21,476 bases of DNA from IMG/VR virus record IMGVR_UViG_2526164632_000013; one strand, written 5' to 3'. Made by a program: the position numbers and the translations under genes. This document shows positions 480 to 19,364 of this stretch, piece by piece. Origin of the DNA: a virus (taxonomy: Duplodnaviria; Heunggongvirae; Uroviricota; Caudoviricetes). Every line of letters begins with the position of its first letter. The stretch's first letter is position 1. A model generated the notes under the pieces. The model saw only the letters and a program-made list of their open reading frames with translations. It searched no databases and was not told the DNA's origin.

Positions 480-821
480 ATGGTTGAACTCTCGCATCGA
501 CCAGAGATCTCCGTAGCGCAACTCGCTCGTGAGCATGGGATCAACGATAATTTGCTGTTCAAGTGGCGCCAGTACTGGCGCGAAGGAAAACTACGTCCTC
601 CTTCAACAACAGAAAACAACGTGCCTGAGCTGCTCCCGATAACACTTGATGCCGAAGATGTTGTCCCTACAACCTCCCCCCGGTCACAACCTGTAGCTGC
701 TGCGACACCTGAATCACTCAATATCAGCTGTGAAGTGACGTTCCGGCACGGATCACTCCGTCTGAATGGTGCCATCAGCGAAAATATCCTGAACCTGCTG
801 ATACGGGAGCTCAAACGTTGA
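480..821 (+). CDS. IS66-family accessory protein orfA (TnpA)
   Basis: 113-aa ORF, first gene of the IS; MVELSHRPEISVAQLAREHGI... looks like a helix-turn-helix N-terminus. An in-frame stop at 441-443 means no longer N-terminus is available. Confidence 0.75.
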   Translation: MVELSHRPEISVAQLAREHGINDNLLFKWRQYWREGKLRPPSTTENNVPELLPITLDAEDVVPTTSPRSQPVAAATPESLNISCEVTFRHGSLRLNGAISENILNLLIRELKR

Positions 822-1165
822 TCCCATTACCATCAGGGACAAAGATCTGGCTGGTCGCTGGCATCACCGATATGAGAAACGGCTTCAACGGCCTGGCGGC
901 AAAGGTGCAGACGACGCTGAAAGACGATCCGATGTCAGGTCACGTTTTTATCTTCCGTGGGCGTAATGGCAGTCAGGTAAAGCTCCTCTGGTCTACCGGC
1001 GATGGACTGTGTCTGCTGACCAAACGGCTGGAGCGCGGCCGCTTCGCCTGGCCGTCAGCCCGGGATGGCAAAGTGTTCCTCACACCGGCACAGCTGGCGA
1101 TGCTGCTGGAAGGTATCGACTGGCGGCAGCCTAAAAGACTGCTTACGTCCCTGACTATGTTGTAA
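818..1165 (+). CDS. IS66-family orfB (TnpB)
   Basis: 115-aa ORF with a TTG start overlapping the orfA stop (TTGA), suggesting translational coupling; N-terminus IPLPSGTKIWLVAGITDMR as in IS66 orfB proteins. Confidence 0.8.
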   Translation: MIPLPSGTKIWLVAGITDMRNGFNGLAAKVQTTLKDDPMSGHVFIFRGRNGSQVKLLWSTGDGLCLLTKRLERGRFAWPSARDGKVFLTPAQLAMLLEGIDWRQPKRLLTSLTML

Positions 1166-1213
1166 GCCTCTTTATCCTGGTCGACGCTGAATGAGCCTGG
1201 TAATATACCCGGT

Positions 1214-2752
1214 ATGAGCAGCTCACTTCCTGACGATATCAATGCACTGAAACGTCTCCTTGCCGAACAGGAGGCGCTGAACCGTGCCCTGCTGGAAAAG
1301 CTGAACGAGCGTGAACGCGAAATAGACCATCTGCAGGCACAGCTGGATAAGCTGCGCCGGATGAACTTCGGCAGCCGCTCCGAAAAAGTCTCCCGTCGTA
1401 TCGCACAGATGGAAGCTGACCTGAAGGCACTTCAGAAAGAAAGTGATACCCTTACCGGTCGGGTTGACGACCCGGCCGTGCAGCGCCCGCTGCGTCAAAC
1501 CCGCACCCGCAAACCGTTCCCCGAATCACTCCCCCGCGATGAAAAACGGCTGCTGCCGGCAGCATCATGCTGCCCGGAATGTGGAGGCTCACTGAGCTAT
1601 CTGGGTGAGGATGCCGCCGAACAGCTGGAGTTGATGCGCAGCGCCTTCCGGGTTATCCGGACTGTACGTGAAAAGCATGCCTGTACTCAGTGCGATGCCA
1701 TCGTGCAGGCCCCCGCGCCTTCACGGCCCATCGAGCGGGGTATCGCAGGACCGGGGCTGCTGGCCCGCGTGCTGATCTCAAAGTATGCAGAGCACACCCC
1801 GCTGTACCGCCAGTCTGAAATGTACGGCCGCCAGGGCGTGGAGCTGAGTCGTTCACTGCTGTCGGGCTGGGTGGATGCATGCTGCCGGCTACTGTCACCG
1901 CTGGAAGAAGCGCTTCAGGACTATGTGCTGACTGACGGTAAGCTCCATGCTGATGACACGCCTGTCCCGGTGCTGTTGCCAGGCAATAAGAAAACGAAGA
2001 CCGGGCGGTTATGGACCTACGTTCGTGACGACCGTAACGCCGGGTCAACGCTGGCGCCGGCGGTGTTGTTCGCTTACAGCCCGGACAGAAAAGGCATCCA
2101 TCCGCAGACCCATCTTGCGGGGTTCAGTGGTGTACTGCAGGCGGATGCATACGCCGGGTTCAACGAGCTGTACCGGGATGGCCGGATAACGGAAGCCGCC
2201 TGTTGGGCTCACGCCCGCCGTAAAATCCACGATGTGCACGTTCGCACCCCGTCAGCCCTGACGGAGGAAGCGCTGAAACGGATCGGCGAACTGTACGCCA
2301 TCGAGGCAGAGATAAGGGGAATGACGGCGGAGCAGCGCCTTGCCGAACGTCAGTTGAAAACGAAACCGCTGCTGAAATCCCTGGAAAGCTGGCTGCGTGA
2401 AAAGATGAAAACCCTGTCGCGACACTCAGAACTGGCGAAAGCGTTCGCATACGCCCTGAACCAGTGGCCGGCGCTGACGTACTATGCAGATGATGGCTGG
2501 GCTGAGGCGGACAATAACATCGCTGAAAATGCGTTGCGGATGGTCAGTCTGGGCCGCAAAAACTACCTGTTCTTCGGTTCGGATCATGGAGGAGAGCGGG
2601 GAGCGCTGCTGTACAGCCTGATCGGGACGTGCAAACTGAACGGAGTGGAGCCAGAAAGCTACCTCCGCTATGTCCTTGACGTCATAGCCGACTGGCCGAT
2701 AAACCGGGTCGGCGAACTGCTCCCCTGGCGCGTAGCACTGCCGACTGAATAA
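1214..2752 (+). CDS. IS66-family transposase orfC (TnpC)
   Basis: 512-aa ORF with N-terminal coiled-coil/leucine-rich region, CPECGG...C..C zinc-finger-like motif, and a long catalytic region; homologous to the fragment at 2-340. Confidence 0.9.
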
Positions 2753-5932: not shown

Positions 5933-6283
5933 TTAAGGTTGTGATTCCGGAGGAGTCTTCAGAGAACCAGTAATTCTTCCTGGTAGCTTTCCTTTGTAGG
6001 TTATCCACACATTCTGCGCCTCTAAAATTACGGGGCACTTTTCCGGCGACTGCTCATCCCCTTCACATAACCCGGCAGCAACATCCAGGAAGACCTGTCT
6101 GATGCTCCTTCTGGCTGCTGCCTCATAAAACTCCAGCGCGGCACCTTCAACACGGTCCAGCGAGATGTCCAGGTCAAAAATTTCACCGTCAAAGCGTTTT
6201 TTGTCCCGTAACGCTAAAGTTACCGTAACTTTATTCTCAAAATTGCGGATCCCTTTCACAATCAGTTCATAGTTTTGAGTCAT
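5933..6283 (-). CDS. Hypothetical protein between holin and endolysin (the position ydfR occupies in K-12 Qin)
   Basis: 116 aa; GGGGAGAG Shine-Dalgarno 7 nt upstream of the ATG; starts 4 nt after the holin stop. Family not recognised from sequence alone. Confidence 0.65.
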   Translation of the reverse strand: MTQNYELIVKGIRNFENKVTVTLALRDKKRFDGEIFDLDISLDRVEGAALEFYEAAARRSIRQVFLDVAAGLCEGDEQSPEKCPVILEAQNVWITYKGKLPGRITGSLKTPPESQP

Positions 6284-6287
6284 TGAA

Positions 6288-6503
6288 TTACTCTCCCCGT
6301 GCCGCCTTACGACGGTCCTCTCTGATTTTGAAATACAGGTTAGTCAGATATGTCAGCAGCCCAAACAGCAGACTCCCCAGCACGCCTATTGCCGCCCACT
6401 GAGACGGGGAAACCCTGTCCAGCAACTGCAGGAACCAGTAGCCCGTTCCCACCGCTGACGTGGTGTATGACACACCTGTTGTGATTTTTTCCATCTGGTA
6501 CAT
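6288..6503 (-). CDS. S: Pinholin (S21-like class II holin) with dual-start motif
   Basis: 71 aa [71 protein letters not shown], near-identical over the TM and C-terminal regions to phage 21 S as recalled. Met1 and Met4 give the antiholin/holin dual start. The track's longer ORF (to 6608) spans a terminator and is rejected. Confidence 0.9.
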
Positions 6504-6536
6504 ACCCCGTCTCCCGTTATCCGGAAGCTGACAACA

Positions 6537-6568
6537 ATAAAAAAGCCACCAGTTAAGTACTGATGGCT
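6537..6568 (-). terminator. Rho-independent terminator between the esterase gene and the lysis cassette
   Basis: Minus-strand GCCATCAG-tacttaa-CTGGTGGC (8-bp stem) followed by TTTTTTATT. Confidence 0.55.
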
Positions 6569-6652
6569 CTGATAACTCATGCAGGCGTCTCAGACGACCC
6601 ACTGACACTACCGGTGAGTTTAACGATACCTTCCATTTGACTGGCTCACTTT

Positions 6653-8515
6653 TTATGATGATGCCGGTGCATTTATCTCCAGCACCAGACTTTCTATCTC
6701 AACGCCATACGTTGCATTTTTGGTAATATCCGTCAGCGTCAGTGCATTTAGTCCCACTGTCAGACTGTCTTTTATGACCTGGAATGCCGGGCCAGCCACT
6801 CCATTCAGTTTCGGAGTAACCGTGGCACTGCCGGCGGTGAACACCAGCTCCAGCGTCTGCCAGTCGTTACTGTAATTCCCGAACTCGCCCAACTTTGTGT
6901 TTCCTGCTTTCTTGTGATGCATCAGATTCAGTTTGCCGTCTGTGGTCTGGGTGAAGAACGACATCAGGAACGGGTTACCAGTCCCGGTCATCGCCACGAC
7001 GTCAGGTAACGCTACATCGGTATACAGATAAATTCCCAGACCGAACTGGTTGTTGGTCAGTGCGCCTGACAGGCGAAACTTACAGCTCAGTCTGCCACCC
7101 CGTGTCAGCAGGGAGACTGCGTCATCCACCGGGCGCGTCAGGGACCAGGCTTTATTGCTCTGCTTGGTGATCTTAAATACACCATCTGACAACTGAATTC
7201 CGCCATTCTTAATGCTCCAGCCCTGCGCAGCAGCGTCTCCGGCTGTCGGCAACAGGGAGATTGTGCGTATGGATGCATCTTCAGACGGCCCCGATGGCGT
7301 GTCGCCGCCGGGCGAGGGTTTGATTTCCGGTGCCTTACCACTAATGAAGGCTGAGGTGCGCCCGGCTGCGTTCAGAATAGCGGTTGCCATACGATCGGGA
7401 ATAATGCCACGACGCGCCCATGAGCTGAAATGCGTCGGGCGATTTGATGATACCCAGTTTTTGTTCGTTCGGGATGCCGAACCGTAATAACCAGACCCGA
7501 CAATATCAGGATCTTCTGACGGGTTGTTTGTCGGTGTATTAACTCCGCTACCATCGGTCATAAAGGGAACAAAATAAATCTGCTGGGATTCTTTACCTTT
7601 ATATGCACCATATACCACTTCATATTGCGTACCGTGTTCTTGTTTCCACGCGTATGTCGTGTCGCCACAAATCCAGGGGACTGATGCCGGACTTCCACCG
7701 TGACACTGCGCCGCCAGCCCGGCAAGGTCAGCACGGAACTGCTGTACCATTGCAAGAAATGCTGCTGGCTGCTGGGCGTAACTGGCATTCGTCATATCGA
7801 ATTCCCCCTGCATCCAGCATATCGCCAGCAAAACGTTTTTCGGGTTTTTCTGCAATGCTGCCTTCGTGCGGAAAAGCAGATCCTGATATAACGGCTTACC
7901 CACTCCCCAGCGAGCCGAATCCTGACTGGCCCCCGTGGACTCGCTGAATGTCCCCTCCGTGCCCTGGGTGAATGCCGAACCACCACGACAGCATGGTACC
8001 AGCAGGATCCCCGCATTATTAGGGATATACGGAAGCAGTTTTTTGGCAATATGTAAGCCCTGTCCGACACAGCCGTACTGCCCTTTGCTCAGGTCAGCCC
8101 GGGGATGATTAATCGTACTCATATCCTGAACATCATGCAGACAATGGTCAGCAGGAATGATGTCGTTAAATACGCATACTTCACCACCGGGAGTCACTGT
8201 GTTACGACGGGCCAGTTGCTTAATGCGCGGATGGGGCGCATCGTATGAATCCGGAAGCGGAAGCCCTTCACCGTAAGCCATGGCATTAGACTGCCCGGCC
8301 AGTACGATGACGTAGTACCACTCCGGCTCAGTTGCACCACTGACGACCACATCACCTTCTGCGACAATCGCCTGAATAAGTGCTGCGCCATCATCCGTAT
8401 ACGAAGAAAACGGCCCGCCGTATGGTTGCCATCCTTCACGAATTTTTTGAGCAAGTGCATCAGCAAGGTCTGACGGCGATACCGCCCTGACAACATCATA
8501 GTGTTTAAATGCCAT
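6653..8515 (-). CDS. nanS: Prophage sialate O-acetylesterase (NanS-p-like)
   Basis: 620 aa; [24 protein letters not shown]-type esterase motif; GGGAGGA Shine-Dalgarno 3 nt upstream of the ATG; located between the tRNA cluster and the lysis genes, where NanS-p genes sit in Stx-type prophages. Confidence 0.8.
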
Positions 8516-8963
8516 GAATCCTCCCGGCCGGGATAATATTGTGAGTAAAATGAGGAGCGGGCTGAAGTCCGGAAGTTACAGGACAATGGCAGAAGAGAGA
8601 CAACAGCCCGCAATACGAAAAAGGCCGCGCTATTGCGCAGAGTGATTACTGTCGGATATTATTCGCCAGCTGAAATATTACTTCACGTTTTGTTGTTTAT
8701 TCCTTGCCGCCCGCGTCTCCCAGCGCGGGCTTTTTTTGTCCATAAGAAAGCCCCTCCGGAGAGGGGCTGGAGAGTGGCGCTATGTGCCATTGCATGGTGC
8801 CGGGTGCCTCCCGGTGAATTCAGTACCAGCACCTGAATCCGCGATTATCCCATATACCTACTCGCTGATTGCCCCTCCGCACAGGGGGATTCACCATGCC
8901 AGTTTCTTTTAACAAACTCCCCGCAAAACAGACAACTGTCAACCGTCTGAATTGTGAGACATT

Positions 8964-8988
8964 TAAAAAAAAGCCCGCAAAAGCGAGC
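8964..8988 (-). terminator. Rho-independent terminator immediately after the tRNA cluster
   Basis: Minus-strand GCTCGC-tttt-GCGGGC followed by TTTTTTTT. Confidence 0.6.
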
Positions 8989-9003
8989 CAGGGAAAATAA
9001 GTG

Positions 9004-9080
9004 TGGCGCGTTGTACTGGATTCGAACCAGTGACCGATTGCTTAGAAGGCAATTGCTCTGTCCGGCTGAGCTAACAACGC
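9004..9080 (-). tRNA. argO: tRNA-Arg (anticodon UCU)
   Basis: Manual fold: acceptor GCGTTGT/ACAACGC, anticodon stem ATTGC/GCAAT, loop CTTCTAA (anticodon TCT), T-arm GGTTCGAATCC, discriminator G, CCA encoded. Symbol assigned by position, following the ileZ-argN-argO order of Stx-phage late regions. Confidence 0.85.
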
Positions 9081-9093
9081 ATGATGCAGATAA

Positions 9094-9170
9094 TGGACCG
9101 CCATCGGGGACTTGAACCCCGCGCAGCCAGCTTCGAAGGCTGGCGCTCTTTCCTGATGAGCTAATAGCGG
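9094..9170 (-). tRNA. argN: tRNA-Arg (anticodon UCG by manual fold)
   Basis: Acceptor CCGCTAT/ATGGCGG (one G-U pair), anticodon stem CCAGC/GCTGG with loop CTTCGAA (anticodon TCG), T-arm GGGGTTCAAGTCCCC, CCA encoded. Symbol by position only. Confidence 0.75.
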
Positions 9171-9177
9171 TATGTGA

Positions 9178-9253
9178 TGGTGGCCCTTGCTGGATTTGAA
9201 CCAGCGACCTGGCGATTATGAGTCGCTCGCTCTCACCACTGAGCTAAAGGGCC
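9178..9253 (-). tRNA. ileZ: tRNA-Ile2 (anticodon CAU, AUA-reading ileX/ileZ-like)
   Basis: GGCCCTTTAGCTCAGTGGTGAGAGCGAGCGACTCATAATCGCCAGGTCGCTGGTTCAAATCCAGCAAGGGCCACCA is near-identical to E. coli ileX as recalled; anticodon loop CTCATAA. Confidence 0.85.
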
Positions 9254-9293
9254 GGGAGCCGCATAATAACGACGCGTAATTAATTCTTCAATA

Positions 9294-10352
9294 TCATCCG
9301 TTCTGGCTGACTAAATCCTGTACTTCCCGAACCGTCTGCTCAAAACGTTCAGTCTCCAGCTCAACGCCAATTGCACGACGCCCGAGCGCCAGTGCCGCTT
9401 TCACTGTCGAACCCGACCCCATGAAAAAATCTGCAATCAGGTCACCCGGACGACTGCTAGCGCTGATTATCTGCTGCAGCATTTCTGCCGGTTTTTCGCA
9501 CGGATGTTTCCCGGGATAGAACTGCACCGGTTTATGCGTCCACACATCGGTATACGGCACCTGCACCGTCACGCCAAAATACCGCCGCAGATGCTTATAT
9601 TCACTCAGCAGTTCCATATACTGCCGGTTCAGCTCACTGTATGTGCTGACCAGTTGGTAATGGGACTTTTCCAGTTCTCCCCGCTGATGTTTCTCTTCTG
9701 CCACCCGGGCAAACAGCGACTGTAATTTCAGATAATCGCTTTCGTTCGGTAGCTGCCACTGACTGGCACTGAACCAGTGCGACACCATGTTTTTCTTTCC
9801 TGTGGCATCTGCAATCTGTTTTGCCGTTATCCCCAGGGCCGCGCGCGCATCACGAAAGTAAGAAATCAGCGGGGCCATCACATGCTGTTTCAGTGCACTG
9901 CCCTTCGCCGCATACCCGGCATCTTTCGGACGATACGGCCCCTGATAATGTTCCGCGAACAGAATGCGCTCTGTGGCGGGGAAATACGCCCGCAGGCTTT
10001 CCTTGTTGCATCCGTTCCAGCGTCCGGACGGCTTCGCCCAGATAATATGGTTCAGCACACTGAAGCGTTCACGCATCATGATTTCGATATCAGATGCCAG
10101 GCGATGACCACAGAACAGGTAAAGACTTCCGGCAGGTTTCAGCACCCGCCAGAACTGCGCCAGACACTGGTCCAGCCACTTCAGGTAATCATCGTCGCCC
10201 TTCCACTGGTTATCCCAGCCCTCGGGCTTCACTTTAAAGTATGGCGGGTCTGTGACTATCAGATCGACAGAGTTTTCCGGTAAGGTCTGGATAAATTCCA
10301 GGCAATCAGCGTTGATTAACTCACAACTGGATATTTTTACAGCATTAGCCAT
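9294..10352 (-). CDS. Orphan DNA methyltransferase, beta-class amino-MTase (probably N6-adenine)
   Basis: 352 aa; motif IV IVTDPPYF near the N-terminus and motif I FFMGSGST near the C-terminus (CcrM/RsrI-like order); no adjacent restriction endonuclease candidate. Confidence 0.85.
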   Translation of the reverse strand: MANAVKISSCELINADCLEFIQTLPENSVDLIVTDPPYFKVKPEGWDNQWKGDDDYLKWLDQCLAQFWRVLKPAGSLYLFCGHRLASDIEIMMRERFSVLNHIIWAKPSGRWNGCNKESLRAYFPATERILFAEHYQGPYRPKDAGYAAKGSALKQHVMAPLISYFRDARAALGITAKQIADATGKKNMVSHWFSASQWQLPNESDYLKLQSLFARVAEEKHQRGELEKSHYQLVSTYSELNRQYMELLSEYKHLRRYFGVTVQVPYTDVWTHKPVQFYPGKHPCEKPAEMLQQIISASSRPGDLIADFFMGSGSTVKAALALGRRAIGVELETERFEQTVREVQDLVSQNG

Positions 10353-10490
10353 AGATCAATAAGCACTTCTCTGATAGGCTCATACCGCTTTTGCGCAAAG
10401 CAGATGGGCCTGAGGTTTGCTTGTGACCCCAACGCATGAGCAGATGGCTGGCAGGTGCCGCTAACACCCACCAGCCGCCCATTACCACAA

Positions 10491-10516
10491 ATAAAAAAGC
10501 CTTCACTGAGGAAGGC
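10491..10516 (-). terminator. Rho-independent terminator overlapping the stop of the small ORF
   Basis: Minus-strand GCCTTC-ctcagt-GAAGGC followed by TTTTTTATTT; the TGA stop of ORF 10503-10823 lies in the loop. Confidence 0.5.
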
Positions 10517-10823
10517 GTCTGTAACAACCGAACTGATAATCTGCCAGACCCGCCATAACAAGCTGGGTCAGTATTAACTGGCAGCGTTCGCGTGAAAGAT
10601 AAGTGTTCTGCGCAATTTCCCCGGCGGTCGCCGGTTCGGTGACGCTTAATTCATTAAACACCACTCTGGCGGTTTCGGTCATATCCTGCTGTTTTAGCAT
10701 GCCTTTTTCCATTTTCCGGTTAACGTGACATACCAATAACTCTTGTCGAAAAAGCCAGCAAGTTGAAAGACCGGTATTAGCAACCACCAGCGCGTTTAAC
10801 GCCCCGTGCCGTTTTTCAGTCAT
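10503..10823 (-). CDS. Hypothetical small protein, possibly a winged-helix DNA-binding protein; start uncertain
   Basis: 106-aa ORF bracketed by two terminators; the C-terminal half (...ATAGEIAQNTYLSRERCQLILTQLVMAGLADYQ) looks HTH-like. The first ATG lacks a Shine-Dalgarno and abuts the upstream terminator T-run; an internal start (MEKGM.../MLKQQ...) is possible. Confidence 0.4.
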   Translation of the reverse strand: MTEKRHGALNALVVANTGLSTCWLFRQELLVCHVNRKMEKGMLKQQDMTETARVVFNELSVTEPATAGEIAQNTYLSRERCQLILTQLVMAGLADYQFGCYRRLPQ

Positions 10824-10848
10824 AAAAAAACCCGCAAAAAGCGGGCTC
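10824..10848 (-). terminator. tR'-like terminator about 80 nt downstream of the Q-like gene
   Basis: Minus-strand CCCGC-ttttt-GCGGG followed by TTTTTTT; position matches the Q-antiterminated terminator of lambdoid late operons. Confidence 0.6.
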
Positions 10849-10924
10849 TTTCAAATGTCCATGTCTGCTATTCGCCTCGCGGTACAGCTTTGCGAAGCTT
10901 ACCGGAATTGAAGCAGTTTTTACG

Positions 10925-11491
10925 TCAAAAAGCAATAACTTTTTTCTCTATACCAAAAGCCATAACCATTGGTTTGTACAAAATAAATTCTGCCACCTTT
11001 AGCCAATGCTCAATGCGTCTTTCACAGGTTCTTAAACTCCATTCCGGATGTGCATCATTCAGCAGTTCAGCCATTTTGCGCTTAGTCATCCCCCGCCCCA
11101 CATAACGCTGACTCAGAACATTGAGCAGCCCGGGATAACCTGCCAGTACTTCACCAATAACCCTGTCGATTATTAACGCCTCTGAATCGGTACAATGTGC
11201 CAGCCAGCTTTTTTGATTGCCGTTGATCATATCCCGCAAAAAAGCCTCAAGTTCAGGTTTGTCCAGACCCGCTTTTTTCATCCTCCGGAGCGCCTCGTTA
11301 ATTGCCGTTTTTGTCAGCTTTTTAGAGGTCAGTAATTGGTTGAACATATTTCCCGTCTTACCGTCGCCAATATACGACCAACGCCCCCACATACGCAGTT
11401 TCCCCTGGATCCAGACACTTTCCAGCGTTTTCAGGCGTAAATGCTCACCGCTTTTGCCTGTAATTTCCGGGTATATCATATTTATGCTCAC
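10925..11491 (-). CDS. Putative late-gene antiterminator Q (Q82/QuuD-like)
   Basis: 188 aa from a GTG overlapping the rusA stop (or 184 aa from the ATG at 11479); a MWGRWS motif reminiscent of the RWGAWA motif recalled for phage 82 Q; sits between rusA and a tR'-like terminator. Confidence 0.6.
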   Translation of the reverse strand: MSINMIYPEITGKSGEHLRLKTLESVWIQGKLRMWGRWSYIGDGKTGNMFNQLLTSKKLTKTAINEALRRMKKAGLDKPELEAFLRDMINGNQKSWLAHCTDSEALIIDRVIGEVLAGYPGLLNVLSQRYVGRGMTKRKMAELLNDAHPEWSLRTCERRIEHWLKVAEFILYKPMVMAFGIEKKVIAF

Positions 11492-11847
11492 TCACTTTCA
11501 ATTTTGTAAATCTTCACGCCCAGCCGCCCACCAGAAACGAGCTGACCGCGCACAATATTGATTTCATCAAACTGCTCGTCGTCTATAAGTAGTCCGGCAT
11601 GCGTAAGCGCATCCAGTGGTGCCTTCAGGATATTGTCCAGGTCGCGGCGGCGCTTATCCGGTGGCTCTGCAATAATCTTTATCGCCAGCCTTCCGGACAG
11701 GTTTAATTTCAGCCGCTGCTGGCGAACAATAAGTGCCACATCCCGGCGATAACGCTCACCGGCTTTTGACACAAAATATGTGCTGCCACGACGTCGCCAG
11801 TAGGTGTTCACCGTCGGCGGGTAAGGCAAAACAAACTCTATACGCAT
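11488..11847 (-). CDS. rusA: Holliday-junction resolvase RusA
   Basis: 119 aa, MRIEFVLPYPPTVNTYWRRRG...PDKRRRDLDNILKAPLDALTHAGLLIDDEQ, close to E. coli RusA including the DxDN catalytic region; AGAGG Shine-Dalgarno. Confidence 0.9.
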   Translation of the reverse strand: MRIEFVLPYPPTVNTYWRRRGSTYFVSKAGERYRRDVALIVRQQRLKLNLSGRLAIKIIAEPPDKRRRDLDNILKAPLDALTHAGLLIDDEQFDEINIVRGQLVSGGRLGVKIYKIESE

Positions 11848-11859
11848 CAGTAACCTCTT

Positions 11860-12909
11860 TTACCCGAGCACGCCGGTTGCAAAGGCGCGATCAAGAAAAC
11901 GAAAAATTAAATCAATCTGGGAACCATGCTTTTCTTCAAATGCCAGCGGATCAGCATGAAGTTCGTTGTGATGCTCCCGGCACAACGGTAGCGTGAAAAT
12001 ATCGTGGGCTTTTGTCCCTATTCCGCCCTGACCATGACCAATCAGGTGATGGGGATCGTCGGCTGGCTTACCACAACACGCACACGGCTGTGTCTTTACC
12101 CAGCGCGTATATTTCTCATTTACCCAACGGCGACGTTTAGGTCGCTTCATTAAAGATTCCGGAGACTCCGGATCAACAGCAATGCTGACCACCGTCTTTT
12201 CCTGTGGCGGGTTCTGTTGCTGGTGGGCGTGAGGCAGCGGCGCAAGATTTTTTGTGCGCTGTTTCAGTATGCTGGTGGCGGTCTGCTCTCCCGGTACGAT
12301 GTCGCTTTCACGGTACATTGAGCGGATTTTTTCCGCACGCAACCCCAGCGAACGACGTAATACCGCTTCCGGTAGCGCGTCCGCCACCTGATTGCGGATC
12401 GCCCACCAGGATAATTCAGCCAGCGATAATTCCCGTTCCTGCGAGCCATTCATTGCATGGCGTATGACGTCAATCATCCATGCAGACAGGTTTTGGTGAG
12501 CAAGTTGCCCGAGTGATTCGGAGGTCTGGTCGCGCAGCTGGTTGTCGCAGTGCCAGCACAACACCATTGCGCCGGTACCATAACGATGTATGACGGTTTC
12601 ACTGTGATGGTAGTCACCATGAGGCCACTGGCAGGATTTGACATGACGCAGGAGCCAGTCAGACAGTGCGCCAGCGCCGCCAGCAGCACGAATCACACGC
12701 TCATCGCTGAAAAATGGCAGTAATGATTTATCCTCCGCCAGCGGCTGGCGAACGGCAGGGACGACTCCGGACGGCAGACCGCGCATGCTTTTCGGTTCCG
12801 GCTCCACCAGCACCCTGCCGCAATGAAAAACCGGCAGTGATTCGCGACCGGGCTTAAGGACCACCAGCCCGAGTTCCGGTACCAGAACAGGTCGAAGTAA
12901 TACCCGCAC
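11860..12909 (-). CDS. DUF968-family prophage protein (YdfU-like)
   Basis: 349 aa, the same length recalled for K-12 Qin YdfU; Cys/His-rich C-terminus (CACCGKPADDPHHLIGHGQGG...CREHHNELH); GTG start with GGAGG Shine-Dalgarno. Confidence 0.75.
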   Translation of the reverse strand: MRVLLRPVLVPELGLVVLKPGRESLPVFHCGRVLVEPEPKSMRGLPSGVVPAVRQPLAEDKSLLPFFSDERVIRAAGGAGALSDWLLRHVKSCQWPHGDYHHSETVIHRYGTGAMVLCWHCDNQLRDQTSESLGQLAHQNLSAWMIDVIRHAMNGSQERELSLAELSWWAIRNQVADALPEAVLRRSLGLRAEKIRSMYRESDIVPGEQTATSILKQRTKNLAPLPHAHQQQNPPQEKTVVSIAVDPESPESLMKRPKRRRWVNEKYTRWVKTQPCACCGKPADDPHHLIGHGQGGIGTKAHDIFTLPLCREHHNELHADPLAFEEKHGSQIDLIFRFLDRAFATGVLG

Positions 12910-13723: not shown

Positions 13724-13879
13724 TTACTCCTCAGGTTCGTAAGCTGTGAAGACAGCGACCTCCGTCTGGCCGGTTCGGATTCGTACCTCGCAGAGGTCTT
13801 TCCTCGTTACCAGTGCCGTCACTATGACGGTTAAACAGATGACGATCAGGGCGATTAACATCGCCTTTTGCTGCTTCAT
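13724..13879 (-). CDS. hok: Hok/Gef-family type I toxin (HokD/RelF-like)
   Basis: 51 aa MKQQKAMLIALIVICLTVIVTALVTRKDLCEVRIRTGQTEVAVFTAYEPEE, the Hok family signature; AAGGAG Shine-Dalgarno. An in-frame upstream ATG (13936) with its own Shine-Dalgarno gives a 70-codon mok-like frame. Confidence 0.85.
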   Translation of the reverse strand: MKQQKAMLIALIVICLTVIVTALVTRKDLCEVRIRTGQTEVAVFTAYEPEE

Positions 13880-14090
13880 AGCCTGCTTCTCCTTGCCTTT
13901 CGGCGCGTAAGAGGCTAACCTACGTTTGTGAAGCATAGATTGGGCCTCAGATTAATGTTAAGCGTCTTGCAGGACGCGTAATGTTAACTGGGGCTTTTCT
14001 CTGTCTGCCTTACGGTGGCATGCCCGAGGCAGACAGCCTCAAGCACCCGCAGCAATTCTACTTAACTCCCGTCACCTCGCCAATATAAAA

Positions 14091-14250: not shown

Positions 14251-15282
14251 CTACCAATCAATAAAATCAGTGATGTTATCCAACCTAATTACAGTAACTT
14301 CCCGTCTCAACTGGTTTTTCCAATATATCTCACGAGCGTTTTGTTCACCAGCACCGCTCCACTCAATTACTCTTAAAGGCTTAGAGGTTAGGTAAGGTCG
14401 AATAAGCAGGTTAAGGTGAATATCGAGACCAGAGTAACCAAACAATATTATTTCTTCTGATTCAAATAATGCAAACTGCAAATAATCCCAGTACGTAGAA
14501 AGAACATTAGATGCTGCTATAACTGACGGTTTTCTTTTTATATGAGTTAACACTATATGCTCACTAGGTTCATCTATGTCAAGAGTAAGTTGTGAGCGTG
14601 AAAGTTTTAAAACATTTTCATGCTGATTAATAAATAGTGGTGAACCATGCAAGTGCAAATAATAACCAAACCTACGATTGTATTTCCGTTCGAGCGCTGC
14701 AGAGGAAAATCCGTGGCTTAGCATCCCATCAACTAAAACCCCATCATACCCGTTGAATATATCATTATCTATGAATGAATTGTATAATAATTTGTCATAG
14801 TTTAATGTCGCGATATGTGAGTGTGTGTTCTTTACAAACTCCACAAGCGCATTTTCGAATCTTTGTGGCAAACCTTTATCGTAATTATGCAACCTGGTTG
14901 CAACTTTGTGAATATAAGTGGCGGTAATTTTGGGGAAGTTTAGTCCATCTTCAGTAAGCCAATGCACGTTCCCCTCTCCAATTTGAGCAAGAGCTTTACA
15001 ATATGTGACAGCCTGGTGAAGGGTATCCAACTCATGTTCTCCTTCTGGTGGACCTTGCCGCTGAAGACAACGCTCGATAAGTTGCTTGTGGATATCTTTT
15101 AAAAAATTGGGGCGATGCCAAATTTCTTCCAACGCTCTGTCTAAGGAGAAGTGAGCAGGATCTAAAGCCATACCGAGACCGTTGCCGAATATTATTAATT
15201 TTCTTGCCATATAGGGGGACTCATATTGGAATAACGCTGGATAGCGTCGCGCGATACGCTTAAGTTTAGGATTAATAGACAT
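14251..15282 (-). CDS. Standalone SIR2-like (SIR2_2-type) protein, candidate NADase defence effector
   Basis: 343 aa with the ordered motif set of defence-type SIR2 domains as recalled from ThsA: IIFGNGLGMA (Gly-rich NAD loop), IATLNYDKLL (TNYD-type, putative catalytic Asn161), YYLHLHGS (putative catalytic His212), ILFGYSGLD. No other domain. The gene and its 370-bp upstream region are visibly AT-rich compared with flanking phage genes (not computed). Confidence 0.8.
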   Translation of the reverse strand: MSINPKLKRIARRYPALFQYESPYMARKLIIFGNGLGMALDPAHFSLDRALEEIWHRPNFLKDIHKQLIERCLQRQGPPEGEHELDTLHQAVTYCKALAQIGEGNVHWLTEDGLNFPKITATYIHKVATRLHNYDKGLPQRFENALVEFVKNTHSHIATLNYDKLLYNSFIDNDIFNGYDGVLVDGMLSHGFSSAALERKYNRRFGYYLHLHGSPLFINQHENVLKLSRSQLTLDIDEPSEHIVLTHIKRKPSVIAASNVLSTYWDYLQFALFESEEIILFGYSGLDIHLNLLIRPYLTSKPLRVIEWSGAGEQNAREIYWKNQLRREVTVIRLDNITDFIDW

Positions 15283-19306: not shown

Positions 19307-19364
19307 TTTCTGGTGACGTTTGGCGGTATCAGTTTTACTCCGTGACTGCTCTGCCGCCGTTTTT
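19307..19364 (+). ncRNA. dicF: DicF small regulatory RNA (ftsZ-targeting)
   Basis: TTTCTGGTGACGTTTGGCGGTATCAGTTTTACTCCGTGACTGCTCTGCCGCC followed by GTTTTT matches the 53-nt DicF sequence as recalled; lies in a 570-bp non-coding gap between the ydfC-like and dicB-like genes, as in Qin. Confidence 0.8.

Follow-up and report, generated by a model that had tools for sequence, protein, structure and literature searches.

Comparison with Stx phages and Sakai prophages identifies an unoccupied stx insertion point and a conserved two-strand small-RNA locus in the probable late operon of a defective Escherichia coli prophage

Lambdoid phages transcribe a constitutive late promoter into a short RNA, such as the lambda 6S RNA, StxS, or IsrK, unless the antiterminator Q acts (PMC7547250, PMC4825925), and RNAs of this kind are general among lambdoid phages, as described for StxS (PMC7547250). 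"Convergent sRNAs" (small RNAs) have been reported at the moron site, between the cargo genes and the conserved phage open reading frame (ORF) downstream of the late promoter (PMC4104026). The DNA methyltransferases M.EcoGI and M.EcoGII, which are prophage-borne, have been described from E. coli O104:H4 C227-11 (Murray et al. 2018). In what follows, this literature is the source for RNA expression, for the methylase's lack of specificity and its silent state in lysogens, and for how antitermination works, whereas sequence identities and homologies, breakpoints, hairpins, and probe matches are results of the present analysis. We analyzed positions 8516-10848 of a 21,476-nt stretch of viral DNA (IMG/VR record IMGVR_UViG_2526164632_000013; the whole stretch is called the window), which comprise a small ORF, a methyltransferase gene, three tRNA genes, and a 488-bp spacer between a Q-like gene and an esterase gene. 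With a probability of roughly 85%, this is the part of the late operon nearest its promoter, in a defective and mosaic lambdoid prophage of E. coli (Qin/Sp4/Sp11-like) that lacks stx, with an sRNA-bearing spacer and an unoccupied stx site. Every component belongs to a family already described in Stx phages and their relatives, and nothing in it is new; the locus opens no new question, and its value lies in annotation.

Window positions 8400-11000 are 100% identical to prophage DNA in E. coli O111:H2 12A, FDAARGOS_1059, and 602687. According to the RefSeq annotation of the O111:H2 copy together with Pfam and PHROG, the late genes, all on the minus strand, are arranged in the order DUF968 protein, RusA, DUF1133 Q-like antiterminator, small hypothetical protein, DNA methyltransferase, tRNA-Ile, tRNA-Arg, and tRNA-Arg, continuing with the SASA/DUF6645 esterase and then holin, YdfR, lysozyme, and lysis genes. 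The presence of hokD/sok and dicB/DicF in the same window identifies a Qin-like lambdoid element. Its large terminase gene is interrupted at 480-2752 (plus strand) by an IS66-family element (ISEc22: tnpA, tnpB, transposase) with terminase fragments on either side, and the prophage is therefore defective, DNA packaging being impossible. The element is also mosaic: the counterparts of its Q module are in Sp11 and Rac-type phages, and none of the Stx phages in the phage collection has a matching Q type; the segment running from the small ORF through the tRNAs matches KH16-type Stx2a phages; the sRNA spacer matches Sp4; and the esterase is 82-83% identical to the copies of Sp4 and Sp11. Simple deletion of stx from a known Stx phage would therefore not produce this window.

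The first-pass annotation of this DNA, made by a model from the letters and a list of ORFs, had proposed that the region is the slot in which Stx phages carry stx and that stx itself is absent, and both statements were borne out. The Stx2a phage Stx2_KH16-043 (LC616079) is collinear with the window on both sides of the slot (92% over 8966-10835 and 73% over 7373-8961), and the 1,335 bp between its two blocks, which stand in place of window positions 8962-8965, encode Stx2A and Stx2B. Sp5 of Sakai has the same two breakpoints, and in an Stx1 phage stx1AB occupies the same interval, with the same sRNA block after stx1B. From these breakpoints and this layout, the slot is bounded by the tRNA-operon terminator on one side and by the 5' flank of the sRNA gene STnc100 on the other; the empty cargo (moron) insertion point, which has no strand, is placed at 8962..8965 by the BLAST breakpoints 8961/8966. 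TerB-like genes are found between the tRNA genes and STnc100/nanS-p in Sp11 and in the strains GE3 and TB06053 (TerB/DUF3927 inserts in GE3 and TB06053), and the slot is empty in Sp4 and in this window, as in many further E. coli prophages. A tblastn search of the 21.5-kb window with the Stx1 and Stx2 subunits gave a best E value of 1.5, and blastn with the stx cassettes gave no match. KH16-043 shares with the window, as 92% identical DNA, the small winged-helix gene, the M.EcoGII-type methylase gene, ileZ-argN-argO, and the tRNA terminator, and both KH16-043 and the Sp5/933W-type Stx2 phages carry STnc100, the antisense region, and nanS-p in the same order. However, KH16-043 and Sp5 differ from the window in their stx2AB cassette and in their Q/tR' module (the homology to KH16-043 ends at 10835), and Sp5 differs further in that its antisense sRNA is AsxR and only the last ~37 codons of its methylase gene are left. 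The window thus gives a clean, base-level view of the unoccupied stx insertion point, which is useful for the comparison of Stx and non-Stx prophages.

The 488 bp at 8516-9003, in which no credible coding sequence (CDS) was found, align along their whole length with the argO1-ECs_1088 spacer of Sakai Sp4 (98.98% identity over 488/489 nt). On the minus strand, at 8738..8928, the spacer carries the sRNA STnc100 (= EcOnc05 / EcOnc27 / sRNA103; PasD-related), which matches Rfam RF02076 over model positions 1-206/206 with 139.2 bits (gathering score 47) and has its own terminator at 8768-8749. STnc100 has been equated with EcOnc27 and with sRNA103 immediately downstream of stx2B (PMC12711010, PMC12370729), and it has been related to PasD in the preprint of Zhu et al. 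2026. The northern probe for EcOnc05 matches the plus strand of the window 35/35 at 8836-8870 and therefore detects a minus-strand RNA, and the probe for EcOnc08/21/42 is the minus strand of 8629-8663 (35/35) and therefore detects a plus-strand RNA. The latter corresponds to a convergent antisense RNA, a homologue of EcOnc08/21/42, at 8571..8738 on the plus strand, which is assigned from the probe match, the Hfq peaks, and a plus-strand terminator at 8709-8730 followed by T7. In Sakai, northern blots gave sizes of ~222 nt for EcOnc05 (Sp4) and ~271 nt for EcOnc08/21, and both are Hfq-bound peaks (Tree et al. 2014, PMC4104026). When the Hfq peaks of that study are transferred from Sp4 coordinates, they map to two places: the 3' half of STnc100, and plus-strand 8571-8734, which ends at the terminator 8709-8730. 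The offset of the published coordinates from the probe positions is about 0 at Sp4 and about +138 nt at Sp5; an assumed uniform offset of ~+138 nt was dropped because the probe positions give ~0 at Sp4.

The size of ~222 nt suggests that the EcOnc05 RNA starts near 8955-8965. An antisense RNA of 271 nt ending at the 8709-8730 terminator would start at ~8468, already within the esterase gene near its 5' end, and would therefore overlap the esterase leader and start codon. The 488-bp spacer is thus a conserved two-strand sRNA locus that has already been mapped experimentally in Sakai, and it would encode two Hfq-binding RNAs, STnc100/EcOnc05 in sense and EcOnc08/21 in antisense, converging on a shared terminator region. 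The position of the antisense RNA points to cis-regulation of nanS-p. Stx1 and Stx2 phages have the same locus on the downstream side of stx; it therefore borders the slot and does not fill it. Among 5,426 complete E. coli genomes, 2,867 have a match to some part of the spacer, and 977 have at least 80% of it in one place. Its description in the first-pass annotation as hairpin-rich non-coding DNA holds insofar as it lacks a credible CDS and contains terminator-like hairpins at 8989-8972, 8768-8749, 8730-8709 (plus strand), and 8640-8625, but it does carry RNA genes. The last of these hairpins (8620..8640, minus strand, from the scan) is the third sense-strand one; it lies ahead of the nanS-p leader and is kept in Sp5, the Stx1 phage, and KH16-043 (alignment A2). 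Over 6000-12000, the consensus scan found 13 terminator-like sites, compared with 5.6 +/- 2.3 in shuffles, and the individual hairpins fold more stably than shuffled sequence. We suggest that the spacer upstream of nanS-p be annotated as STnc100/EcOnc05 plus an antisense EcOnc08/21-type RNA; RefSeq now has a pseudo-CDS there. This "incomplete hypothetical protein" (8784-8909, plus strand), which is listed in O111:H2 12A and in O104:H4, lies antisense within STnc100 and is probably an annotation artefact.

Sp4 resembles the window in the identity of the spacer, the tRNA cluster upstream, nanS-p downstream, the empty cargo site, and exact matches to both probes. It differs in its Q and in the genes upstream of the tRNAs, where a CAAX protease and an AraC-family regulator take the place of the methylase. 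The sRNAs AsxR, AgvB, and EcOnc03 are also antisense to the late operon, located between cargo genes and nanS-p, convergent with an STnc100-type sRNA, and ended by a plus-strand terminator. However, EcOnc08/21 measures ~271 nt on northern blots, compared with 51-60 nt for the AsxR/AgvB/EcOnc03 anti-sRNAs. The window matched neither RF02703 nor RF02702 (AsxR / AgvB) at the gathering threshold or at E <= 1, and the conserved ~42-nt 3' core of the anti-sRNAs, TTGCCCGAACCCA, is absent from the window and present in Sp5. The PasD-type arrangement of Zhu et al. 2026 likewise has an STnc100/PasD-type sRNA directly upstream of the esterase and a terminator-bearing gap between esterase and holin, whereas the element in the window scores as STnc100 proper. 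The sense strand at 8686-8700 reads AAUAAACAACAAAAC, whose CA-richness resembles that of GcvB target sites and the AgvB decoy, perhaps by chance; in the antisense EcOnc08/21-type RNA, it corresponds to the GU-rich GUUUUGUUGUUUAUU. An AgvB-like decoy of GcvB was suspected in the CA-rich run that follows STnc100, but membership of that family was rejected, as the run is on the wrong strand and the Rfam models and the conserved core are unmatched.

Upstream of the tRNA genes, at 9294..10352 on the minus strand, is the gene of a 352-aa M.EcoGII-like beta-class N6-adenine methyltransferase (Pfam PF01555, N6_N4, E = 1.3e-43; PADLOC MTase_II, E = 6e-165). Its motifs DPPY (residues 35-38) and FMGSG (residues 310-314, FMGSGS near the C-terminus) stand in the beta-class order, and the PF01555 match is split by an insert of ~90 aa. 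M.EcoGII has the same motif order and a central recognition domain with a helix-turn-helix (PMC11551740), and it is likewise prophage-borne and without a restriction partner, as is M.EcoGI. To M.EcoGII as printed in the supplement of PMC11551740, the enzyme is approximately 94% identical (327/349), and 4 of the differences fall in the recognition domain (residues 160-237). The cluster representative P0008 (349 aa), considered as a clean copy of M.EcoGII, was dropped, as it is a different allele at 90% identity. Homologues were found in 2,775 clusters at E <= 1e-20, and the named top matches are all from enterobacterial genera. No nuclease family was matched among the flanking genes scanned with Pfam, and the earlier description of a beta-class DPPY methyltransferase without a restriction partner was thus upheld. 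Compared with M.EcoGII, the allele here has ~20 substitutions and a slightly longer C-terminus, and its activity is predicted.

The Q-like late antiterminator of the DUF1133 type is encoded at 10925..11491 on the minus strand (Pfam DUF1133, E = 3.7e-105; Phage_antitermQ, 33 bits against a cut-off of 26) and belongs to PHROG 753 ("anti-termination protein Q-like"). It is 100% identical to ECs_2193 of Sakai Sp11, which is annotated "phage antiterminator," and 67% identical to the product of a gene annotated q in phage Rac-SA53. A hairpin followed by U7 at 10848-10824 begins ~75 nt past the Q stop codon and has a minimum free energy of -29.7 kcal/mol for 10900-10815 (z = -3.4). The consensus terminator scan did not list it, presumably because its stem can extend into the T-run. 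By its place and fold, it is probably the tR' of a Q-dependent late promoter, and a putative short late-promoter transcript would occupy 10824..10900 on the minus strand, ending at the hairpin 10848-10830 and its U-run. The lambda 6S RNA, StxS, and Gifsy-1 IsrK loci likewise have a strong intrinsic terminator shortly 3' of a Q-family gene and then a small ORF; in contrast, full-length StxS has 258 nt, whereas the RNA predicted here has ~75 nt, with a promoter and a Q-utilisation site that are putative. Here the late promoter, the Q dependence of the operon, and the cis-regulation of nanS-p by the antisense RNA are all read from position. In the lysogen, the late promoter just past the Q gene would make only a short RNA stopping at tR' (10848-10824), and a second terminator at 10516-10499 would act as a backup, leaving the winged-helix gene and the M.EcoGII-type methylase gene off. 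Upon induction, Q-modified RNA polymerase would pass tR' and four later sense-strand terminators, and the read-through would express, in order and among others, the 65-aa protein, the rare-codon tRNAs, the NanS-p esterase, and the lysis genes.

Morons are reportedly (Juhala et al. 2000) genes with their own promoter and terminator that are inserted between phage genes. The tRNA operon has both and fits this definition; the small ORF has a terminator, and the promoter scan found no promoter between the 10848-10824 terminator and the ORF. The first-pass annotation had described a 106-codon ORF bracketed by two terminators and read it as a moron. The ORF (10823-10503, minus strand) is present as listed, and so are both terminators, the second of which (10491..10516, minus strand) lies over its stop codon, with a stem GCCUUC/GAAGGC at 10516-10499 followed by U6 and a T-tail to ~10491. 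The moron interpretation fares less well, given that the first terminator is probably tR', no promoter was found, and the conserved coding part has 65 aa. This part, at 10503..10700 on the minus strand, most likely encodes a winged-helix (TrmB-like) protein according to the RefSeq CDS, alignment A3, and a weak Pfam TrmB match, and it belongs to PHROG 331 (function unknown).

The first-pass annotation had regarded the 488-bp stretch as a scar or a regulatory leader, and neither survives as its main description now that it is recognized as a conserved sRNA locus, 99% identical in Sp4. If the stretch were a scar left by deletion of the stx operon from a former Stx phage, the 92% identity of 8966-10835 to a Stx2a phage and the 95-98% identity of the distal 306 bp (8516-8821) to DNA downstream of stx1B/stx2B in many Stx phages would be accounted for, and repeated loss of stx has been raised as one possibility for such prophages (Zhu et al. 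2026). However, no remnant of stx is present at the protein or DNA level; the complete tRNA terminator is joined directly to the STnc100 flank, and the same joined spacer recurs in Sp4 and, at full length, in O157, O111, and O104 strains among the sampled matches. Moreover, the Q module is of a type absent from all Stx phages of the phage collection, and unrelated cargo (TerB-like; Sp11, GE3) sits at the same point or interval elsewhere, as expected of an insertion hot spot, which fits better than a deletion scar. We consider the scar very unlikely, although stx may have been lost precisely and long ago. The comparison with stx-flanking DNA that had been proposed gave a double answer: 8516-9003 matches such DNA and is also conserved as it stands (in the 977 genomes given above). 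The stretch could instead serve chiefly to control nanS-p and the lysis genes in cis, as a 5' leader. The last ~100 nt (8620-8516) must indeed be the 5' UTR (untranslated region) of nanS-p, and they are highly conserved (A2); the antisense RNA covers this UTR; and three serial terminators would make downstream expression dependent on Q. Nevertheless, 191/488 nt match, over its full length, an independent sRNA family that has a terminator of its own, STnc100 and the antisense RNA were detected in Sakai as discrete Hfq-bound species, and STnc100 is found in other prophages without the esterase leader, many genomes matching only the core (query 227-454). A predominantly leader function is thus possible but doubtful, and the sRNA locus remains the preferred description.

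Two further alternatives concern the coding genes. The methyltransferase might be a sequence-specific orphan that is active in the lysogen as an epigenetic regulator, in line with its lack of a restriction partner and with the ~6% of residues at which it departs from M.EcoGII, including four within the helix-turn-helix recognition domain. However, two methylases of C227-11 have been reported to be wholly non-specific for A in any context, M.EcoGII being one of them, and M.EcoGI is 333/349 identical to M.EcoGII (PMC5778455); we take the second enzyme to be M.EcoGI. The reconstructed ancestors of M.EcoGII (Anc291 and SUPREM) keep largely non-site-specific activity (PMC11551740). In the lysogen, both M.EcoGI and M.EcoGII stay silent; cells are harmed when M.EcoGII is made constitutively, and the authors of that study suggest that prophage induction switches the two enzymes on (PMC5778455). 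In the window, two intrinsic terminators and no recognizable promoter stand ahead of the gene, and the scan found neither a promoter nor a terminator of the methylase's own. A specific, lysogen-active orphan is therefore extremely improbable. By its similarity to M.EcoGII, the enzyme is probably non-specific, and the entry "DNA-methyltransferase" should carry the flag M.EcoGII-like, hence probably non-specific. Both roles that the first-pass annotation had offered for it can now be graded: anti-restriction is reasonable for a protein this close to M.EcoGII, whereas epigenetic regulation in the lysogen is unlikely, given the reported silence of M.EcoGI and M.EcoGII there and the two terminators ahead of the gene. 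Its position behind tR' and the second terminator in a Q-dependent operon would offer a simple basis for such silence. As for the small ORF, translation of all 106 codons from the ATG that abuts the U-run of tR' finds some favor in the PHROG 331 alignment, which covers residues 1-105, and in several database entries of 97-106 aa, including Klebsiella proteins covering 92% of the query. However, in alignment A3 every invariant column begins from M42 on, and only the last 65 codons are conserved across the homologues of Klebsiella, Salmonella, Citrobacter, and Buttiauxella, the N-terminal 41 residues being unrecognizably different in those of Klebsiella, Citrobacter, and Buttiauxella. Across prophages, the C-terminal part is 94-95% identical, compared with 71-95% for the N-terminal extension (71-78% in 3/4 loci). 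The best-populated database clusters have 63-65 aa, RefSeq annotates 65 aa, and the upstream ATG has no visible Shine-Dalgarno sequence, whereas GGAAAAAGG stands before the ATG at 10700. Translation of the full ORF is thus quite unlikely; judged by this conservation, the true CDS is probably the final 65 codons (10700-10503), the longer ORF being an over-extension, and the small ORF should be called at 65 aa.

Several points weigh against our interpretation of the region as a late-operon head with an sRNA locus. Between 10925 and 10848, the consensus scan recognized no late promoter or Q-utilisation site, and only poor hexamers were seen by eye. An isrK-like match spans 10824-10900 end to end with 19.8 bits, far below the gathering score of 50 and resting mainly on the terminator; identity with isrK was dropped, and the resemblance is kept as a positional analogy. 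The 5' ends of both sRNAs are derived from northern sizes in another strain, and the expression of the spacer RNAs and the behavior of the methylase are known from other strains, this strain being represented by its sequence. The identity to M.EcoGII is approximate because the reference was machine-read from a PDF with evident reading errors, which account for some of the mismatches. With the terminase gene split by the IS66-family element, the late operon may never contribute to making phage particles in this host. Yet the Q gene, the methylase gene, the tRNAs, and the sRNA pair are intact, so the head of the late operon may be retained for the host. If so, SOS-triggered, Q-dependent read-through would lead to adenine methylation, regardless of sequence context, in the DNA and RNA of the host or of co-resident phages, and the plus-strand EcOnc08/21-type RNA would act in cis on nanS-p and in trans on host targets through its GU-rich stretch GUUUUGUUGUUUAUU or, alternatively, the CA-rich complement of that stretch on the read-through sense RNA would be a decoy of GcvB. 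The resemblance to GcvB sites is short and may be due to chance, and this combined proposal seems very improbable to us.

The tRNA cluster at 9004..9253 on the minus strand, found by ARAGORN and Rfam, consists of ileZ (CAU; 9253-9178), argN (UCG; 9170-9094), and argO (UCU; 9080-9004), with identities of 76/76, 72/77, and 77/77 to the best Sakai copies. ARAGORN labels the CAU tRNA as Met, yet Sakai ileZ2, with which it agrees at 76/76 positions, carries the annotation tRNA-Ile. By these identities, the cluster is the ileZ-argN-argO set of Stx and related prophages. Divergence is greatest in the tRNA-Arg(UCG), which is 72/77 and 70/77 identical to the argN copies of Sakai and has an intact acceptor stem and an Rfam score of 55.8 bits, compared with 70-72 for the other two. 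The promoter scan placed the promoter of the operon, TTGAAG-17-TATTAT, at 9263..9291 on the minus strand, and its TTG and TATTAT are invariant in four contexts (A4), among them Sp4 despite a different gene upstream of the promoter. The methylase remnant of Sp5, just upstream of ileZ2 (L003 4612-4722, corresponding to window 9294-9404), carries this conserved TTGnnn-17-TATTAT, which may explain its retention. The terminator of the operon lies at 8964..8989 on the minus strand (hairpin 8989-8972, z = -3.5) and also stands upstream of stx2A in KH16-043 and Sp5. The earlier report of a tRNA-Ile(CAU) and two tRNA-Arg genes with a terminator of their own is thus confirmed, and with its conserved promoter and its own terminator, the operon would be expressed independently. 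The rare codons read by these tRNAs are used moderately in the late genes and heavily in stx2A of KH16-043, at 88 per 1,000 codons.

The gene at 6653..8515 on the minus strand, between the stx slot and the holin gene, encodes a NanS-p-type sialate O-acetylesterase (PHROG 143), as the first-pass annotation had supposed, with the full NanS-p domain set of an N-terminal DUF1737, SASA, and a C-terminal DUF6645 (Pfam). It is 82-83% identical to Sakai ECs_1088 and ECs_2189 and 54-56% identical to the Stx-phage copies. From the stop codon of the esterase gene to the start of the holin gene there is a gap of 149 nt (6503-6653, minus strand), which contains a strong terminator hairpin at 6570-6542 and is conserved at 94-96% in Stx1 and Stx2a phages; in this gap, Zhu et al. 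2026 place the PasA/PasC sRNAs. Elsewhere in the window, the sok antitoxin RNA (13874-14048, minus strand, 116 bits) lies beside hokD, and the DicF RNA (19308-19359, plus strand, 72.5 bits) lies close to dicB, both of which are typical features of Qin-type prophages. Adjoining hokD/sok in the early region of the prophage, a lone protein with a SIR2_2 domain (14251-15282, minus strand) gives weak matches (Pfam, 26 bits; PADLOC SIR2 / PDC-S21, E ~1e-5) and may be the product of a defence gene.

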